This document shows positions 386 through 15,504 of a stretch of DNA of 16,982 nt, piece after piece. The stretch lies in the NCBI GenBank assembly GCA_051294375.1, contig CM119271.1, forward strand, positions 5,055,340 through 5,072,321. The letters are read 5' to 3'. Position 1 is the stretch's first letter. Each line of letters opens with the position of its first letter. The notes below the pieces were generated by a model. It searched no databases and was not told the origin of the DNA. It saw only the letters and a list, made by a program, of their open reading frames with translations. Position numbers and translations under genes: made by a program. The DNA comes from Paraspadella gotoi (Eukaryota > Animalia > Chaetognatha).

Positions 386-1239
386 CCACGATTCGACGAA
401 TTTATTATTTATTTCGATTTTTTTTTNNNNNNNNNNNNNNNNNNNNNNNNNNNNNNNNNNNNNNNNNNNNNNNNNNNNNNNNNNNNNNNNNNNNNNNNNN
501 NNNNNNNNNNNNNNNNNNNNNNNNNNNNNNNNNNNNNNNNNNNNNNNNNNNNNNNNNNNNNNNNNNNNNNNNNNNNNNNNNNNNNNNNNNNNNNNNNNNN
601 NNNNNNNNNNNNNNNNNNNNNNNNNNNNNNNNNNNNNNNNNNNNNNNNNNNNNNNNNNNNNNNNNNNNNNNNNNNNNNNNNNNNNNNNAAAAAAATTTAA
701 TGTCTAACATTAAAACGTTATTTTTCCGTGATTTCGTTCGTTGTTCCAATTTTACACCTGGCTATTTCTGGCTATTTCTTTTTATACTTAAAAAAAAAAA
801 AATTACTACGTTATGGTCATTATTTGAATGGCTTAAGATTTATGTATTTTTTGTTTTTTAGTTCTTTAGCTGAGCTAAAAAAAATTAATGAGAGTTCAAA
901 GAGACTATCAATATTTTTAATCAGGATCACAAAAGCAACAAATATAATTTTCGCTCCAAAAAAAAATAAAGAAAAAATAACCAAAAAATTGTTTTGTAAA
1001 ATTTTTTCTCAAAATTCCACCTTGAAAAAAAAAGGTAAAAGAAAAAAACCAAATGTCTATTTTCCTTTTTCTTTTTTTTTTTCGCTTTCATCTTCATTTC
1101 TTCTCCTCCATCTTATTTTTTTTTGGCAAAGATTTTAACGAATAGAATTTCTTGGCGCGAGAGAAAAGAAAATGCATTTCTCCGACTTTTGTCTTTGGCT
1201 TAAAAAAAAAAATATATATATTTAAAGAAATCGGCGACA

Positions 1240-1291
1240 ATGACGACGACGACGATGACGACTAAAACGACGACACTGCCGTTGGTGGAAA
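1240..1291 (+). CDS. Putative exon 1 of the methyltransferase gene (MTTTTMTTKTTTLPLVE)
   Basis: ATG at 1240 in a GC-richer island, with a possible donor A|GTAAAA at 1292. The acceptor of the next exon lies in a gap, so phase cannot be verified. Confidence 0.35.
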
Positions 1292-1710
1292 GTAAAAAAA
1301 TAAAAAATCACAAACGGAAGAAAATGAATGGTTATTTCTTTTCTTTGTTTCTTCGGTTAACAATTAATTGCACGCGCGAGCTACTTTTCCAATTCGATTT
1401 TTTTTCTAAAGTTTTTAGTTATTATTTGATTTTTGGTTATTTCGTTCTAAGANNNNNNNNNNNNNNNNNNNNNNNNNNNNNNNNNNNNNNNNNNNNNNNN
1501 NNNNNNNNNNNNNNNNNNNNNNNNNNNNNNNNNNNNNNNNNNNNNNNNNNNNNNNNNNNNNNNNNNNNNNNNNNNNNNNNNNNNNNNNNNNNNNNNNNNN
1601 NNNNNNNNNNNNNNNNNNNNNNNNNNNNNNNNNNNNNNNNNNNNNNNNNNNNNNNNNNNNNNNNNNNNNNNNNNNNNNNNNNNNNNNNNNNNNNNNNNNN
1701 NNNNNNNNNN

Positions 1711-1719
1711 ACGAGCGGG
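1711..1719 (+). CDS. 3' end of exon 2 of the methyltransferase gene (remainder in N-gap 1453-1710)
   Basis: Donor G|GTAAGG at 1720. The noisy duplicate (about 4300-4451) shows the missing exon, reading ENNWDRIASS.. and ..WARDVL.. across indels, which resembles the N-terminal helices preceding motif I in this family. Confidence 0.5.
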
Positions 1720-2023
1720 GTAAGGAAAAGAAAAGGCGGACCGAGATTGGGGTGAAAGAGGATTGGGGTGAAAGAAGTATTGAGCTAAAAGAGGATTAGG
1801 GTGAAAGCAGACGCGAATCTATAGAGAAGGGAGGTAATTCTTTATTATTAGACTTCAACTCTATAAGACTTTAATATGCATTTATTAGAATTTAGACTAA
1901 TTTAGCTCCAATTCATTTGGTGAGACATATTACTCACGGTTATTATTATTACATTTATTATTATTACTATTATATATTGTAGTGGTAGTATTTCATACCC
2001 CACTACTCGTCCGAGAATCAGCA

Positions 2024-2091
2024 GCACCTATGGCGCCGGAGGTAGCACGAGCTCCTCCCAACCCAAAGGACTCGGGTTCGCGCCCTGCTGA
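2024..2091 (+). promoter_or_regulatory. tRNA-derived Pol III internal promoter (A and B boxes); pseudo-tRNA, Gly(CCC)-like
   Basis: A box TGGCGCCGGAGG at 2031-2042 and B box GGTTCGCGCCC at 2075-2085 (one mismatch to GGTTCGANNCC), with canonical tRNA spacing. CTCCCAA sits at the anticodon-loop position. D and T stems partly pair; acceptor and anticodon stems do not, so this is not a functional tRNA. Confidence 0.6.
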
Positions 2092-2093
2092 TT

Positions 2094-2176
2094 CACACAA
2101 GTAAAAGCGGGACGGGGCGTCTAACCCACCTGTAGTGTCGGACTACAGCCCGATCCGAAGTTCGGGACCTTGTGTG
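2094..2176 (+). ncRNA. Candidate twister ribozyme, type-P5 permutation with minimal P1
   Basis: P5 CACACAAG 2094-2101 / CTTGTGTG 2169-2176; AAAA linker; P2 GCGG 2107-2110 / CCC 2125-2127 (one bulge); GA 2111-2112; T1 CGG 2113-2115 / CCG 2155-2157; cleavage motif UAA 2122-2124; T2 AC 2128-2129 / GT 2160-2161; P3 CTGTAGT 2130-2136 / ACTACAG 2142-2148; P4 CCCGA 2149-2153 / TCGGG 2162-2166; L4 U-CCG-AA-GU. Confidence 0.75.
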
Positions 2177-2314
2177 CAACGGACGGTAAACTGCTCGCGG
2201 CATCTTCTTCCACAATATATTATTTTTATTACTTATTTCTTATCATTATACTCACTTATTACTCACGGTCGGTCAGTCCTGAAGAAAGGAAAGGATCGTA
2301 GAGAGGAAAGGATA

Positions 2315-2490
2315 GGAAAAGAGAAGGACAAGGAATGTAAAAGAGAAGGACAATGAATGGAAAAGAGAAGGACAAGGAATGGAAAAGAGAAGGACAAGGA
2401 ATGGAAAAGAGAAGGACAAGGAATGTAAAAGAGAAGGACAATGAATGGAAAAGAGAAGAACAAGGAATGGAAAAGAAAAGGACAAGGAAT
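2315..2490. repeat. 22-bp purine-rich minisatellite, 8 units
   Basis: GGAAAAGAGAAGGACAAGGAAT repeated tandemly with few substitutions; intronic. Confidence 0.92.
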
Positions 2491-2548
2491 GGAAAGTACA
2501 TCTACTTGAAAGAAAAAAAAAATCTTTCTTATGATAAAAATTTGGTAG

Positions 2549-2962
2549 ACGACGATCACGAGGTCGAGGACGACGAGGAGGAAGAGGAGGAAGAGAAGGA
2601 AGAGGAGGAAGAGGAGGAAGAAGATGAGGAAGAACATCTGGAGGACAAAACCTCGTCCATCATTCATCGCGAGAAAAACAAAAACAACAACAACAACAAG
2701 AAAAACAAAAACAAAAGACTCGGTCGGTCCAAAGAAGGAAAAACGACGAAGGGACAAGAGAGAGAGCGAAACGAGGGACAAGACTCTACGAATCAAGGAC
2801 AAAGTAGGACAAAGGGACGAAGAAAGGAGAGAGTACAAAGTCTCCCGCGGTTCGACGCCGTCGTCGACATCGGATGCGGCGTCGGCGACGTCACCGAGTC
2901 GCTCGTCAAGTGGGTCGCCGATGCTGAGGAGGAGAGAGGGATGAAGACGAGGAATGCGTCAG
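2549..2962 (+). CDS. Exon 3 of the JHAMT-like class I SAM methyltransferase: acidic/low-complexity tract, then motif I
   Basis: Open frame encoding FDAVVDIGCGVGDVTESLVKW (SAM-binding motif I, about 2860-2895). Acceptor TTTGGTAG| at 2548 and donor CAG|GTATGG at 2963, both phase 1. Confidence 0.8.
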
Positions 2963-2976
2963 GTATGGGAGAGGGA

Positions 2977-2980
<4 letters not shown>

Positions 2981-3031
<51 letters not shown>
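2981..3031. repeat. (GA)n microsatellite
   Basis: Pure GA run at the start of the intron. Confidence 0.95.
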
Positions 3032-3033
<2 letters not shown>

Positions 3034-3411
3034 TCTCTCAGTGTCCGTAACCAAAAACAAGAACGGGAAAATTCAAGGTGTTGCGCCGCAGTGACGTTAT
3101 TGTGTGAACGCATTTCCAGATGATCACGAAACTACACTAGTATGAGACATAATATGCACGAGAAGCATATTATGTTTCATTGCTTCTTTGTGAAGTATTA
3201 GGTTAAACAACTAAATGTTACATTTTCGGATCAGGTGAGCGTAAGATGGCGTTGTCAGGCGACTATACAAGTATGAAGCCCAGGCACAAGAAGCATCTAC
3301 AAGTCTACTACTAAAATGACTCAGTATTTTTTGGATCATTCTGCATTGAATTTCTGGCCATGTGTCGGATTTTTTAATTTGATCACATTAACCATATGAT
3401 TTGCTTTGTTC

Positions 3412-3546
3412 AACTAAAATCAAAACAAAAACCAAACGAACAAAAACCAAAACAACTAGAACCAAAACAACAAGAACCAATACAACGACAACCAAAACAA
3501 CAAAAACCAAAACAACAAGAACCAAAACAACAAAAACCAAAACAAC
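3412..3546. repeat. 15-bp minisatellite, about 9 units
   Basis: CCAAAACAACAARAA tandem units; the QPKQQ translation in ORF 3396-3764 comes from this repeat. Confidence 0.85.
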
Positions 3547-3564
3547 CTCCTTCTTCGACTCCAG

Positions 3565-3732
3565 ATCCTCCCAAACTCTTTTTCGGTCTCGACTCCTCTT
3601 CCTCCATGGTGGAGTTTTGTCGTCTCAACAGGAGCAGAGTCGTCGAGTCGACGGGAAGAAGAGCAGAGCTGAGATTCGTGATAGGCGACGCCGAGACTGG
3701 AGCGGGGTGGAGCGGCCAAGGGTGGGATGGAG
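3565..3732 (+). CDS. Exon 4 of the methyltransferase (post-I acidic motif and motif II region)
   Basis: DPPKLFFGLDSSSSMVEFCRLNR...LRFVIGDAETGAGWSGQGWDG matches the GxDxSxxM and FxxGDA pattern. Acceptor CTCCAG| at 3564 is phase 1, in frame with exon 3. The donor G|GTGAGG is visible in the duplicate at 5393. Confidence 0.8.
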
Positions 3733-5901: not shown

Positions 5902-6094
5902 CCTTCGACCTGGCGACGAGCTTCTCCACCTTCCATCATCTCCTCGACGTCGACTCCGCCTTCGACCAAATCGCGCGCGTTCTCAAGCCCGGAGGTCGCT
6001 TTCTCATTGGCTGCTTTCTCGACCAATCCGCGTCGTTTCTTCGCGCCGAGCGACGTCTGCTCGACGGAGACAAATGGGCGGGCGTTTTGAGGAA
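5902..6094 (+). CDS. Exon 5 of the methyltransferase (not shown in the ORF track)
   Basis: Acceptor CGCACAG| at 5901 is phase 1, giving GWDG-AFDLATSFSTFHHLLDVDSAFDQIARVLKPGGRFLIGCFLDQSASFLRAERRLLDGDKWAGVLRK, with classic FDL..S...HH and ARVLKPGG motifs. The donor is uncertain (AA|GTTAAG at 6095). Confidence 0.85.
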
Positions 6095-9196: not shown

Positions 9197-9308
9197 CAGA
9201 AAAACAGACCGTCGGACAGTAAGACAGACAAGGAATTGGGTAAGGAAAACGGTGCTCGAGAGGAAAAAAAAAAGAAAAAGAAANNNNNNNNNNNNNNNNN
9301 NNNNNNNN

Positions 9309-10186
9309 TTGTATATTAAATAAAAAGTTTAGGAATAATCAAGGGTTATAATTTTTTTTTATTTCAATAACTGATCAGTTTCTTTAAATAAGTATAAAAT
9401 AATTTAACATAAAAAAATTAAAATAAAATTATAATTATCTAGCTTTGTAATTTTGAAAAGCTTCATTTTTCTGATTTTTTAAGATTCAGTTAAGTTCACT
9501 AATAAATTTAAATAAATTCATATTTACTTTTAAGATTCGCAGTCGGGTCCCACGACCTCGCATCTGAAACTACCGTCTGCTCGTCTCTCCGAATTTAGAC
9601 TCATTCTCACTACTTTTCAAGTGAATCTGAAATCAAGAATCTTCCCTGCTTTCTTATCAGAGAGGAAGAGAGAGAGAGAGAGAGAGAGAAGAGAGAGAAG
9701 AGAGAGAGAGAGAGAGACGAGAGAGTGAGATAAGTCAGTCAAACTATATATATTTAAATTCATGGGAAGTTTTCCTTTTTTATCGTATCAGAGAGAATTA
9801 TTTTAATTTGCAACATAAAATCGTTTTACGTAAAATCTTACCTGTTTTGGGTTCCAAATCGACGAACTCGAGTTATAATAATAAACTTATCAAAATTTAA
9901 TTCCTAATGAAAAAAAAATGTAAAATATTTTCTCAAATTACGGTAAAAATGAATAAGCTGTTCCGTTACAATTACTAATTAATAATAAACAGGTTTATAA
10001 TTAACAATACTTAAAAACGAAAAAAGGACAGGGGCGAAAAACGCGTCGTTTTTCAAAGGCGGGAAAAACTGAGTAATGAGATTAAATCGAACTAAGAAGA
10101 TTACGTATTGATTTATGGCATTTAATTTATGTTCACAGTCTGGTTCATCTCAATTCCTTTCTTTAAGCTCGCTCATTCGGGATCTC

Positions 10187-10217
<31 letters not shown>

Positions 10218-10265
10218 TCTCTCTCTCTCTCTCTCTCTCTCTCCTCTCTCTCTTCTCTCTCTCCC
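9309..10265 (+). repeat. Segment A (957 bp), repeated directly at 11804-12760 and inverted at 12761-13797
   Basis: Both direct copies begin TTGTATATTAAATAAAAAG immediately after a 25-N gap, end at CTCTCCC, and appear identical. Confidence 0.95.
10058..10066 (+). promoter_or_regulatory. E2F-type site GGCGGGAAA within a small GC island
   Basis: Matches TTTCCCGCC on the minus strand, next to the imperfect palindrome GAAAAACG-CGT-CGTTTTTC. Motif match only. Confidence 0.3.
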
Positions 10266-10513
10266 TCCTTTCATTCTCTTTTCTTTCTTTCGTTACTTCT
10301 ATCATCTTTTCCAATCTTATGTTTCTTTCTAACTCTACACACACATTACACAGCCTTACACACACAAGTTCTTTTCTCCCTCTGTTTATAGCAATTACGA
10401 TAAAGATAACAAACACTCTTCGAACTAAGGACCTCGGCTCGTCCCATGTCAGTCGAGATAGTAGATAGCGAGCTCTCTCTCTCTCTAGCTCTCTGTATAT
10501 TTCTCTATCTGTG

Positions 10514-10548
<35 letters not shown>

Positions 10549-10787
10549 CTATCAATTTTCTCCTCGTGAATTTTGCTTCTTTTTTTTCTTTCCTTCTTGT
10601 CCTTTTTTCCTTCTTGTCCTTTTTTCCTTCTTGTCCTTTTTCCTTCTTGTCCTTTATTCCGTGCCCAGAAAATTATTTCTTTCCTCTCCATTCGTAGCTC
10701 CTTTACTTTCTTTTGTTCCAGATGAATATCAGCAACGAGGAATTTTGACTGGAATTTGCATAAACCAATTCGAAGCGAAAGACAAAT

Positions 10788-10834
<47 letters not shown>

Positions 10835-10839
10835 GAGAG

Positions 10840-10929
<90 letters not shown>

Positions 10930-11073
10930 CAGAGAGAGAAGAGACGAGAGAGAAAGAGAGAAGGGAGAGAGAAAAAGTGAAATTGCAGGAGGTCGTTCAC
11001 TCTTTGGTTTTAAACCATTTTAAATTTTAAAAAACATGTTTTCCCTTTTTCTTTTACGGCAAACCCGAGAAGC

Positions 11074-11145
<72 letters not shown>

Positions 11146-11460
11146 AGGAGAGGAATTCGAAAGCCTGAAGCACAAATCAACAAGTAATGGTTTTGACAAC
11201 CAAACCCAGATTTCTACTTTTCATTTGTCTTTCGGCTTCGAATTGGTTTATGCAAATTCCAGTCAAAATTCCTCGTTGCTGATATTCATCCTGGAACAAA
11301 GAAAGTAAAGGAGCTACGAATGGAGAGGAAAGAATAATTTTCTGGGCACGGAATAAAGGACAAGAAGGAAAAAGGACAAGAAGGAAAAAAGGACAAGAAG
11401 GAAAAAAGGACAAGAAGGAAAGAAAAAAAAAGAAGCAAAATTCACGAGGAGAAAATTGAA

Positions 11461-11527
<67 letters not shown>

Positions 11528-11778
11528 CACAGATAGAGAAATATACAGAGAGCTAGAGAGAGAGAGAGCTCGCTATCTACTATCTCGACTGACATGGGAC
11601 GAGCCGAGGTCCTTAGTTCCGAAGAGTGTTTGTTATCTTTTATCGTAATTGCTATAAACAGAGGGAGAAAAGAACTTGTGTGTGTAAGGCTGTGTAATGT
11701 GTGTGTAGAGTTAGAAAGAAAACATAAGATTGGAAAAGATGATAGAAGTAACGAAAGAAAGAAAAGAGAATGAAAGGA
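10266..11778. repeat. Inverted repeat B (10266-~10787) / B' (~11223-11778) around a ~430-bp non-palindromic spacer
   Basis: For example, GGACCTCGGCTCGTCCCATGTCAGTCGAGATAG at about 10430 has its reverse complement at about 11578-11612. B' carries scattered 1-bp indels. Confidence 0.93.
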
Positions 11779-11803
11779 NNNNNNNNNNNNNNNNNNNNNN
11801 NNN

Positions 11804-12681
11804 TTGTATATTAAATAAAAAGTTTAGGAATAATCAAGGGTTATAATTTTTTTTTATTTCAATAACTGATCAGTTTCTTTAAATAAGTATAAAATAATTT
11901 AACATAAAAAAATTAAAATAAAATTATAATTATCTAGCTTTGTAATTTTGAAAAGCTTCATTTTTCTGATTTTTTAAGATTCAGTTAAGTTCACTAATAA
12001 ATTTAAATAAATTCATATTTACTTTTAAGATTCGCAGTCGGGTCCCACGACCTCGCATCTGAAACTACCGTCTGCTCGTCTCTCCGAATTTAGACTCATT
12101 CTCACTACTTTTCAAGTGAATCTGAAATCAAGAATCTTCCCTGCTTTCTTATCAGAGAGGAAGAGAGAGAGAGAGAGAGAGAGAAGAGAGAGAAGAGAGA
12201 GAGAGAGAGAGACGAGAGAGTGAGATAAGTCAGTCAAACTATATATATTTAAATTCATGGGAAGTTTTCCTTTTTTATCGTATCAGAGAGAATTATTTTA
12301 ATTTGCAACATAAAATCGTTTTACGTAAAATCTTACCTGTTTTGGGTTCCAAATCGACGAACTCGAGTTATAATAATAAACTTATCAAAATTTAATTCCT
12401 AATGAAAAAAAAATGTAAAATATTTTCTCAAATTACGGTAAAAATGAATAAGCTGTTCCGTTACAATTACTAATTAATAATAAACAGGTTTATAATTAAC
12501 AATACTTAAAAACGAAAAAAGGACAGGGGCGAAAAACGCGTCGTTTTTCAAAGGCGGGAAAAACTGAGTAATGAGATTAAATCGAACTAAGAAGATTACG
12601 TATTGATTTATGGCATTTAATTTATGTTCACAGTCTGGTTCATCTCAATTCCTTTCTTTAAGCTCGCTCATTCGGGATCTC

Positions 12682-12712
<31 letters not shown>

Positions 12713-12760
12713 TCTCTCTCTCTCTCTCTCTCTCTCTCCTCTCTCTCTTCTCTCTCTCCC
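11804..12760 (+). repeat. Exact direct copy of segment A
   Basis: Same length and ends as 9309-10265. Confidence 0.95.
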
Positions 12761-13218
12761 ATCCCGAATGAGCGAGCTTAAAGAAAGGAATTGAGATGAA
12801 CCAGACTGTGAAACATAAATTAAATGCCATAAATCAATACGTAATCTTTCTTAGTTCGATTTAATCTCATTACTCAGTTTTTCCCGCCTTTGAAAAACGA
12901 CGCGTTTTTCGCCCCCTGTCCTTTTTCTGTTTTTAAGTATTGTTAATTATAAACCTTGTTTATTATTAATTAGTAATTGTACGGAACAGCTTATTCATTT
13001 TTACCGTAATTTGAGAAAATATTTACATTTTTTTTTCATTAGGAATTAAATTTTGATAAAGTTTATTATTATAACTCGAGTTCGTCGATTTGGAGACCCA
13101 AAACAGGTAAGATTTTACGTAAAACGATTTTACGTTGCAAAATAAAATAATTCTCTCTGATACGATAAGAAAGGAAAACTTCCCATGAATTAAATATATA
13201 TAGTTTGACTGACTTATC

Positions 13219-13253
<35 letters not shown>

Positions 13254-13797
13254 NNNNNNNNNNNNNNNNNNNNNNNNNNNNNNNNNNNNNNNNNNNNNNN
13301 NNNNNNNNNNNNNNNNNNNNNNNNNNNNNNNNNNNNNNNNNNNNNNNNNNNNNNNNNNNNNNNNNNNNNNNNNNNNNNNNNNNNNNNNNNNNNNNNNNNN
13401 NNNNTCTCTCTCTCTCTCTCTCTCTCTTCCTCTCTGATAAGAAAAGCAGGAAGATTCTTGATTTCAAGATTCACTTGAAAAGTAGTTGAGAATGAGTCTC
13501 AATCGGAGAGACGAGCAGACGGTAGTTTCAGATGCGAGGTCGGTGGGACCCGACTGACGAATCTTTAAAAGTAAATATGAATTTATTTAAATTTATTAAG
13601 TGAACTTAACTGAATCTTAAAAAATCAGAAAAAATGAAGCTTTTCAAAAATTACAAAGCTAGATAATTATAATTTTTATTTTAATTTTTTTATGTTAAAT
13701 TATTTTATTACTTATTTTAAAGAGAACTGATCAGTTATTGAAATAAAAAAAAAATTATAACCCTTGATTATTCCTAAACTTTTTATTTAATATACAA
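12761..13797 (-). repeat. Inverted copy A', with indels and an internal gap at 13254-13404
   Basis: Starts ATCCCGAATGAGCGAGC (reverse complement of GCTCGCTCATTCGGGAT) and ends TTTAATATACAA. Confidence 0.93.
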
Positions 13798-14489
13798 TAT
13801 AATATATATTAAAATATAATTATACATAAAATATATTTTACAGCAAAGGACATTGAAGCTTTCCGGGCTGACCCCTCAAATGGAAGAAATCGAAAAAAAA
13901 TGGGATGAAGAGGAAACAGTAAAGACTAAGAAGCCTTAGAAAGAAGGGGAGAGAGGAAGAAGGAGAATGAGGAAGAAGGAGAACATGAAAATAAAAGAGA
14001 AAGAAGAAGAATTTGAAAGAAAAAGAGGGAAAAACAAAAAGATAATTAAAAAAAANNNNNNNNNNNNNNNNNNNNNNNNNNNNNNNNNNNNNNNNNNNNN
14101 NNNNNNNNNNNNNNNNNNNNNNNNNNNNNNNNNNNNNNNNNNNNNNNNNNNNNNNNNNNNNNNNNNNNNNNNNNNNNNNNNNNNNNNNNNNNNNNNNNNN
14201 NNNNNNNNNNNNNNNNNNNNNNNNNNNNNNNNNNNNNNNNNNNNNNNNNNNNNNNNNNNNNNNNNNNNNNNNNNNNNNNNNNNNNNNNNNNNNNNNNNNN
14301 NNNNNNNNNNNNNAAAGATAGAAAGAAAGAAAAAGATAGAAAGAAAGGAATGAAAGAAAAAAAAGATAGAAAGAAAGAAAAAGATAGAAAGAAAGAAAAG
14401 GATAGAAAGAAGGAAAGGTTGAAGTCGTCGGGTTCATCTTTTTCTCGGATCAACGATGTTGATGAAAACGAGTTTTTTCAAAAAAAGAG

Positions 14490-15082
14490 AATCGCAAATG
14501 GAAATGGCGTCGAGCGACGTTTATCCGACTCGAGAAAAGGGAGAGAAAATGGAAATGGTGAAACTCCAAGAAACGCTCGAAAAGGCAGGGAAAAGGACAG
14601 GAAATTGGAAATGCGAACTTCGAGCGAGCCGAAAATGGACCAGAAGAGACAGAAAAAAATGGAAATTTCAATCTCCAGGCGCGCTCGAAATGCAATCAAA
14701 AGTGACCAGAATAATCGAAATCCGGGGAATCTCGAAGAGCTCATAACTAGCGGAAAGAAAATGAGACAGAAAATGAAATATGACTGAATCCAATGAGCTC
14801 GCAAACAGGCCGACAGAAAAGACAGAAAATGGAAATGGCGAATCTCCAAGGAGCTCGAAATGGAGATAAAAGGGACAGAAAATGGAAATTGCGAATCTCC
14901 AAGGAGCTCGAAATAGAGATAAAAGGGACAGAAAATGGAAATGGCGATTCTCAAAGAAGCTCAAAATGGAAATAAAAGGGACAGAAAATGGAAATTGGGA
15001 ATCTCGAAGGAGCTCAAAATGGAAAGAAAAGGGACAGAAAATGGAAATGGCGAATCTCGAAGGAGCTCGAAATGGAACAAAA
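14490..15082. repeat. 53-bp minisatellite: 5 clean units (14821-15082) preceded by about 6 degenerate units
   Basis: GACAGAAAATGGAAAT recurs at 14821, 14874, 14927, 14980 and 15033. Unit is approximately GGGACAGAAAATGGAAATGGCGAATCTCCAAGGAGCTCGAAATGGAGATAAAA. Confidence 0.9.
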
Positions 15083-15504
15083 AGAGAGTCTTGCTCTCAG
15101 GTCAAAGATGAAGCTGAGATCATTAACGTAACTTATTAGAATTTAAGAAACTAGTGTAAATGTAAATATATATTAAACAAGAGCTTAATTGATATTTCTT
15201 CAGTGTTAACAATTTACAAACTTTAAAAGTTTTAAGATTCTTTAACTTCAAGCCAACATTCGTAGTCTATCACAAAAAACAAATAGGATTAATAATCTCT
15301 TGTTATTACAAAGAAAAAACCAACGGCACTTCATCGGCGTCTTATCACAAAAAAAGCCTCATTTCACTGGCATCTTATCACAAAAAAAAAGCGAGGCGCT
15401 CTATTCCCGACGCGGCGCCACGTCAAATCTCCGCGCCATCGAACCCTTTCAACTCGGCGCCATCTCGTTGGCGTCGCGGTTGTCGTTTTCGTCGGAGATG
15501 TTAC

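Follow-up and report, generated by a model that had tools for sequence, protein, structure and literature searches.

A predicted type-P5 twister in a 237-bp LTR-like repeat: a candidate LTR retrozyme of probable animal origin

The window analysed here, the whole stretch of DNA of 16,982 nucleotides, is eukaryotic and microsatellite-rich and carries an apparently intron-split methyltransferase gene. Probable exons of this class I SAM methyltransferase gene are found at 2842-2931, 3606-3695 and 5904-6092 on the forward strand; the last matches Methyltransf_11 with an E value of 3e-9, the first matches it weakly and 3606-3695 does not match it. Upstream of this gene, or in an intron of it, sits a 237-bp multi-copy repeat, probably an LTR, in which a tRNA-like domain is followed by a predicted twister ribozyme (Table 1). 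The initial annotation described the ribozyme alone and overlooked the enclosing LTR-like repeat with its tRNA-like promoter region, and its interpretation is supported in part.

Table 1. Features of the repeat and of the predicted twister within it, in window coordinates.
Feature	Position	Strand	Basis or remark
Multi-copy repeat, 237 bp, TGT...ACA ends, imperfect terminal inverted repeat (7/11)	1978-2214	+	Contig loose ends; ends rechecked
Left target-site duplication ATAT	1974-1977	none	6-bp ATATAT at 1972-1977 fits equally
Right target-site duplication ATAT	2215-2218	none	6-bp ATATAT at 2215-2220 fits equally
Predicted 5' hairpin	1979-2006	+	Fold
Outer stem, 5' strand	2007-2013	+	Predicted pairing with 2180-2186, enclosing tRNA-like domain and twister
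tRNA-like domain	2015-2094	+	Closing stem 2015-2024/2085-2094; fold
A-box-like element (TGGC...GG at 2031)	2031-2042	+	Consensus from PMC10886601; deviates from it
B-box-like element GGTTCGCGCCC (GGTTC at 2075)	2075-2085	+	Consensus from PMC10886601; deviates from it, without A58
Twister P5, 5' strand	2094-2101	+	Pairs with 2169-2176; MFE fold; complementary replacement in probable sister subfamily
UAAAA (2102-2106) and P2' GCGG (2107-2110)	2102-2110	+	Core layout, descriptor, phage-trained model
GA (2111-2112), predicted general base G2111; T1' CGG (2113-2115)	2111-2115	+	Core layout, descriptor, phage-trained model
Linker GGCGUC in place of P1, 6 nt, self-complementary; candidate intermolecular P1	2116-2121	+	Duplex calculation
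UAA with predicted cut U2122/A2123	2122-2124	+	Position by homology to twister consensus
P2 CCC (2125-2127) and T2 AC (2128-2129)	2125-2129	+	Core layout, phage-trained model
Optional P3 hairpin, 7 bp	2130-2148	+	MFE fold; loop contains the position that varies most within the twister
P4, 5 bp, with L4 UCCGAAGU (2154-2161) bearing T1 CCG and T2 GU	2149-2166	+	Closing pair A-U, not G-C
Twister P5, 3' strand	2169-2176	+	MFE fold
Outer stem 3' strand, small hairpin (2192-2202), putative LTR end	2180-2214	+	Fold

The stretch is contained in nine public sequencing runs, all of one organism, and contigs covering the repeat were present in six of the eight runs examined (69-1,372 contigs each). Loose contig ends cluster behind 2214 in all six covered runs and before 1977/1978 in five of them. 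Summed depth in run X4 is 13,000-58,000 inside the repeat and 8 on the flank; depth is not copy number, but gives a rough indication of thousands of copies. Runs X10 and X11, which are from other organisms, contained no matching contigs, which is not proof of absence, and none of the runs listed as containing the stretch is on record as an RNA run, which has no bearing on expression. The target-site duplication is known from the window copy only and is partly expected by chance, as the surrounding DNA alternates between A and T. A 13-bp direct repeat at 1928-1940 and 2257-2269 was considered as a longer duplication and rejected, the family ends being 1978 and 2214; it brackets TTA-rich tracts around the LTR and perhaps records an older insertion inside which the LTR landed.

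The consensus behind 2214 begins TTGGT in X4, X5 and X7 (12, 20 and 20 contigs), TTTG in X9 and with other letters in X1 and X2, and the TTGGT signal consists of mixed consensus lines (agreement 0.44-0.49), which derive from two samples in a single study. It may represent a partial primer binding site (PBS) signal, similar to the PBS starts of animal Helenus elements. In one contig of one run (X9), 2214 leads back into 1978 across a spacer, which fits two LTRs, a tandem arrangement or a circle. No two-LTR copy, internal region or clear polypurine tract (PPT) was seen in the window copy and the run contigs, and the window copy is read as a solo LTR because neither PBS nor PPT lies beside it. 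Judged by these sequence features, the 237-bp repeat is probably the LTR of a Helenus-like TRIM.

A58 is usual in a B box. No tRNA gene was detected in the tRNA-like domain by ARAGORN, nor by Rfam in searches with the window and with 1950-2260, and the 237-bp element contains no T4 run. Segment 2034-2089 of the tRNA-like domain carries linked high-depth variants in X1, X2 and X9, and its depth in X2 and X9 is several-fold above that of the twister; this head is probably also part of another repeat family or tRNA-like element.

The initial annotation had laid a circularly permuted twister on 2094-2176, with a type-P5 core and a cut predicted at U2122/A2123. When the letters were rechecked, every element was found at its place, the catalytic G2111 and A2123 are intact, and the core and the predicted position of the cut are supported by homology to the twister consensus. 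The predicted cut falls at position 145 of 237, internal to the repeat. The catalytic GA and the cleavage-site NAA that type P5 requires are present as G2111-A2112 and U2122-A2123-A2124, the majority state in the runs. All pairs of pseudoknots T1 (3 bp, CGG/CCG) and T2 (2 bp, AC/GU) are Watson-Crick and identical to those of the phage twisters described below. The MFE fold (-31 kcal/mol, z -2.0) contains P3, P4 and P5, and P4 with L4 is present with 5 bp at a probability of about 0.73. P2 consists of 2 bp plus a bulged pair and is disfavoured in pseudoknot-free folding: its active-register pairs have a probability of about 0.01 in the nested ensemble, the CCC strand is captured by GGG 2114-2116 at about 0.64, and a nested fold compatible with activity costs 5.2 kcal/mol before pseudoknots. 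A P1 stem closed by a loop is absent, as the 6-nt linker forms no hairpin on folding. The bulged P2 and 5-bp P4 of the initial annotation are both found; a 3-nt P2 strand is shared with the phage subtype.

According to two published studies, tested twisters tolerate defects in P1 and P2 but not changes in pseudoknots or catalytic letters (PMC11662667), and P1-less constructs cut at almost the wild-type rate (PMC5408937); the latter, a review, terms the G-C closing pair of L4 essentially invariant. With intact catalytic letters and pseudoknots on one side and a weak P2 and an A-U closing pair on the other, the common form of the family would be rather likely to cleave itself.

A descriptor that fixes GA, UAA, the AA of L2 and the L4 adenine and leaves the T1 and T2 letters free matched only the 2111/2122 site on the two strands of the window. 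In 386,452 strands obtained by dinucleotide shuffling of the 237-bp element there were one full match and 25 matches to the core alone; the descriptor tolerates the P2 bulge because it was composed after the candidate had been seen. The initial annotation had set a covariance-model search with Rfam beforehand as a test, and its outcome counts against that reading: no twister was reported at E<10 on the window or on 1950-2260, and the site is below the gathering score of RF02684 (37.6 bits). The lost P1 and inserted P3 probably account for this. A model trained on 16 phage twisters scored the site at 28 bits (E 5.5e-8); its training set was chosen by the candidate's own core letters, and the scoring is partly circular. 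As a control, 33 decoy loci that happen to share these core letters all scored 15.4 bits or less.

A chance likeness to twisters, which would be in keeping with the silence of Rfam and with a descriptor written for a site already known, is hardly credible in view of the single full match among the shuffled strands, the identity of 18 core letters with a phage subtype that passes Rfam and the score of the site above every decoy. Homology of 2094-2176 to twisters appears close to certain from its sequence. Elsewhere in the window, 16665-16700 matches the phage-trained model weakly (10 bits) and forms a hairpin with a similar loop; it was treated as a chance match.

When viral contigs were scanned for the core letters of the candidate, at least 121 loci were obtained, with 115 distinct ones among the matches listed, of which 17 combine a P2 of 3 bp with a P4 of 5-8 bp and a P1 of 6-10 bp. 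Sixteen of these 17 were submitted to Rfam, L217 being omitted as a near duplicate of L215, and all 16 of these examples from the matches listed passed the Twister-P5 gathering score (39.3-56 bits). The stems of the phage set covary in an alignment with one misaligned row. This phage P5 subtype (RF02684, clan CL00120), with its core GACGG / UAA-N3-AC / UCCGAAGU, has the same strand order and catalytic G and A as the candidate, and shares with it T1 CGG/CCG, T2 AC/GU, the 3-nt P2 strand and L4. Because CGG/CCG, AC/GU and the 3-nt P2 strand are common to phage twisters that pass Rfam, they confirm the identity of the candidate but are not new. The exchanged pseudoknots CCG/CGG and AC/GU of the initial annotation are therefore Watson-Crick as described, yet represent the phage-subtype core that Rfam Twister-P5 recognises and not new covariation.

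The candidate differs from this subtype mainly around P1. The P1 linker of the phage twisters measures 16-28 nt and forms 6-10 bp in 17/17 structured examples listed (15-28 nt when 21 canonical examples, out of 108 matches, are taken with the 17 swapped ones), whereas that of the candidate measures 6 nt, without intramolecular P1. P3 is present in the candidate and in one of the 17 structured phage examples listed. The candidate further differs in its bulged P2, its A-U closing pair of L4 (G-C in 16/16 of the phage set), its closed 8-bp P5, its eukaryotic repeat setting and the lack of an Rfam match. On sequence comparison, the unusual feature of the candidate is the 6-nt linker.

The exact family pattern had no matches in viral contigs and none in metagenome contigs; 29 metagenome loci fitted a looser pattern, but not one of them combined P2 with a full P4. 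In viral contigs, scans for short linkers, in which a G-C closing pair was required, yielded 4 and 8 loci, and none of these 12 is a P1-less P5 twister: L250 and L253 were rejected as tandem type-P1 twisters, L249 as type P1, L248, L251 and L254 for their long P1, and the remaining six as lacking P2 or P4. In L250 (60-159) and L253 (40-139), both on phage contigs, two type-P1 twisters stand back to back, and both loci are under the Rfam gathering score. Loci L143 and L144 are two twister-P5 copies about 3 kb apart on one phage contig, and the phage contig of L208 has a second, truncated twister-P5 match about 340 bp away. The presence in a eukaryotic LTR of a twister subtype met here in phage contigs raises the matter of its route of entry.

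Among the family copies, the majority form in each of the six covered runs has the catalytic and pseudoknot letters intact. In X1 and X5, every variant stays below 1% of depth at G2111, A2112, G2114, G2115, U2122-C2129, U2154-C2156, A2158, A2159 and U2161, and T2138A in the P3 loop reaches 42-55%. The low variation of the core may only reflect a young family. Damaging variants are G2110C (2-5%, 19% in X9), A2123C (about 1%, 4% in X2, 11% in X9), G2160A (up to 2.4%) and G2157A (up to 4.5%, 12% in X9). Twelve contigs of X5 diverge before 2105 and end in UGCUAGU, and contigs diverging behind 2163 (10 in X1 and 11 in X7, agreement 0.92) read ACUAGCA after four letters, at the position of P5. Since these arms, which come from separate contigs, are complementary over 7 bp, a sister subfamily with a fully exchanged P5 is probable. 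In twister-less copies 2106-2177/2180 is swapped for 27-32 A-rich letters, in three distinct forms (X1, X4, X5), and these copies keep the 5' strand of P5, which suggests secondary loss of the twister. Another 11 and 7 contigs diverge at 2105.

The linker GGCGUC can form a self-duplex of 6 bp (-6.3 kcal/mol) and no hairpin. The chance of self-pairing for a random hexamer is about 0.05 (13/232 hexamers of the element). Its commonest variant, G2117A (19 and 22 contigs, about 3%), is not at a CpG site and gives a perfect palindrome; full pairing is kept by 4 of the 18 single changes. Cofolding of two copies gives a strand-swapped dimer with a linker helix, in which P2 slips onto G2111. The gain on dimerisation is not linker-specific: the native linker ranked 22 of 60 permutations, and 11/60 permutations also give six linker pairs. 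A precedent for a two-copy ribozyme is provided by the dimeric hammerheads of amphibian retrozymes (PMC7229834). In this model the missing P1 might form between two LTR copies through the self-complementary linker, a tentative proposal that falls short of being likely. The description of the motif as a natural P1-less variant thus holds for intramolecular P1, which is absent, but the term 'P1-less' may be wrong if the linker pairs over 6 bp between two copies.

By analogy with plant retrozymes, the reading marginally favoured is that a non-coding, Helenus-like miniature LTR retrotransposon with a predicted type-P5 twister works as a retrozyme. Pol III would start near 2020 in the 5' LTR and, because the LTR has no T4 terminator, would read on through it. 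Cuts at U2122/A2123 in both LTRs would free a unit-length RNA, which would circularise when a host RtcB-type ligase sealed the cut ends, clasped by P5 and the outer stem. The circle would be copied by a Gypsy reverse transcriptase from a tRNA primer at the PBS, and integrase would insert the product; animal Helenus elements are thought to rely on Gypsy, according to PMC10886601. If P1 formed between two LTR copies, a possibility with less than even prospects, solo LTR transcripts and finished circles would be cut poorly. The proposal in its entirety, namely a Pol III-driven animal LTR retrozyme whose phage-type P5 twister without its own P1 is completed by the pairing of two LTR copies through a palindromic linker and excises a unit RNA replicating as a circle, is somewhat unlikely.

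Other functions for the repeat and its twister would explain part of these data. The twister may be a passenger, namely a formerly active ribozyme that the LTR acquired and that, slow or inactive by now, is copied with the element. Absence of intramolecular P1, the weak P2, the A-U closing pair, the competing fold, the twister-less and damaged copies and the lack of an Rfam match would all agree with such decay. The catalytic and pseudoknot letters, however, prevail in 6/6 covered runs, P5 has apparently been fully exchanged and yet remains complementary in the sister subfamily, and defects of P1 and P2 are of the kind that tested twisters tolerate (PMC11662667); a passenger is therefore regarded as unlikely. 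Alternatively, an active twister could serve as a linear 3'-end former or silencer that stands in for the Pol III terminator in a Helenus-like LTR, with linear LTR strand transfer and no circle. The twister lies directly behind the tRNA-like domain, where 17/31 published animal Helenus LTRs carry T4 in a count by eye and this element carries none, and twister-less copies occur. But a cut in the 5' LTR would be expected to strip the terminal redundancy that linear strand transfer requires, and the outer stems, which would clasp the ends left by the cuts, suit circularisation, making this role rather unlikely.

The repeat may also not be an LTR at all, being instead a tRNA-derived SINE-like element, a tandem non-LTR retrozyme of the Schistosoma Sm-alpha type or a MITE, with a twister that processes tandem transcripts. 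A tRNA-like domain together with a ribozyme is the Sm-alpha layout, and the single head-to-tail joint, the TTA-rich flanks and the 13-bp direct repeat at 1928/2257 could be accommodated in this way. Both ends, however, break off sharply at TGT and ACA, and the flanks are unrelated; the tRNA-like part begins about 40 bp inside and there is no tail; the duplication measures 4-6 bp; a MITE would need a longer terminal inverted repeat; and the 13-bp repeat lies outside the family ends. An element of this kind is quite unlikely.

Like the repeat, Helenus/TRIMp3 elements (Kojima 2024, PMC10886601) have a short LTR with TGT...ACA ends, a 4-bp duplication and solo LTRs, together with tRNA-like A and B boxes in the LTR. 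Their PBS starts (T)TGG, to which the partial signal here may correspond. The repeat differs from them by about 130 nt, including the twister, behind the B box. In the text of PMC10886601 the word 'twister' occurs 0 times, and the twister core words in its consensus file have no twister context. Plant LTR retrozymes (Cervera et al. 2016, PMC4918200) resemble the repeat in being non-coding, with 4-bp duplications and with a ribozyme, predicted in the present case, inside the LTR; two cuts release their unit RNA, which is circularised, and the same would hold here. The repeat, in contrast, has a twister and not a type III hammerhead, a probably animal host, a tRNA-like promoter region and an LTR of 237 bp versus 300-400 bp. 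Rfam found no hammerhead in the window or in 1950-2260, and the predicted ribozyme of the LTR is the twister core.

The non-LTR retrozymes of metazoans, which have type I hammerheads (PMC7229834), are small animal repeats processed by ribozymes, as is proposed for the repeat, and some work better as dimers, but they form tandem repeats without LTR, PBS and PPT and carry hammerheads, unlike the repeat. The twister T-variants at the 5' end of Schistosoma mansoni Perere-3, an RTE element (PMC8501958), share with the candidate a place in a retroelement, of an animal there and probably also here, a poor P1 and a P3 starting CUGUAG; they are type P1 with a GAGGG/UCCCAAGC core, and their cut marks a non-LTR 5' end, while the predicted cut of the repeat is internal.

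PMC4918200 and PMC7229834 describe LTR retrozymes as plant elements that carry hammerheads, and the retrozymes of animals as devoid of LTRs. A twister in an LTR or TRIM, or an animal LTR retrozyme, was not encountered in the literature covered (including PMC7761336, PMC6765202, PMC11722881 and PMC10085705); the roughly 1,000 new CHiTA candidates could include the present twister. If the proposed reading is true, the element would join LTR retrozymes with Helenus-type elements, the latter having no ribozyme reported in the accessible sources, and twisters would have a second role in retrotransposition besides trimming of RTE 5' ends. Similar elements have probably been overlooked, since Rfam misses the motif despite its many copies. 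With this element, a circular-RNA route for animal LTR elements and a natural two-copy twister could be tested directly.

Several duplications occur elsewhere in the window. The segment 3764-5600 is a noisy second copy of 1051-3720, with about 80% identity and lacking about 700 bp that include the LTR; it is possibly an unpolished other haplotype or a duplicate and not a clean empty site. Within 9300-13800, 9310-10250 is repeated at 11806-12760, and inverted arms such as 10322-10776 and 11235-11721 are present; these duplications adjoin gaps and are likely assembly artefacts. Tandem arrays are located at 2286-2495, with a period of 22 bp, and at 14768-15090, with a period of 53 bp.
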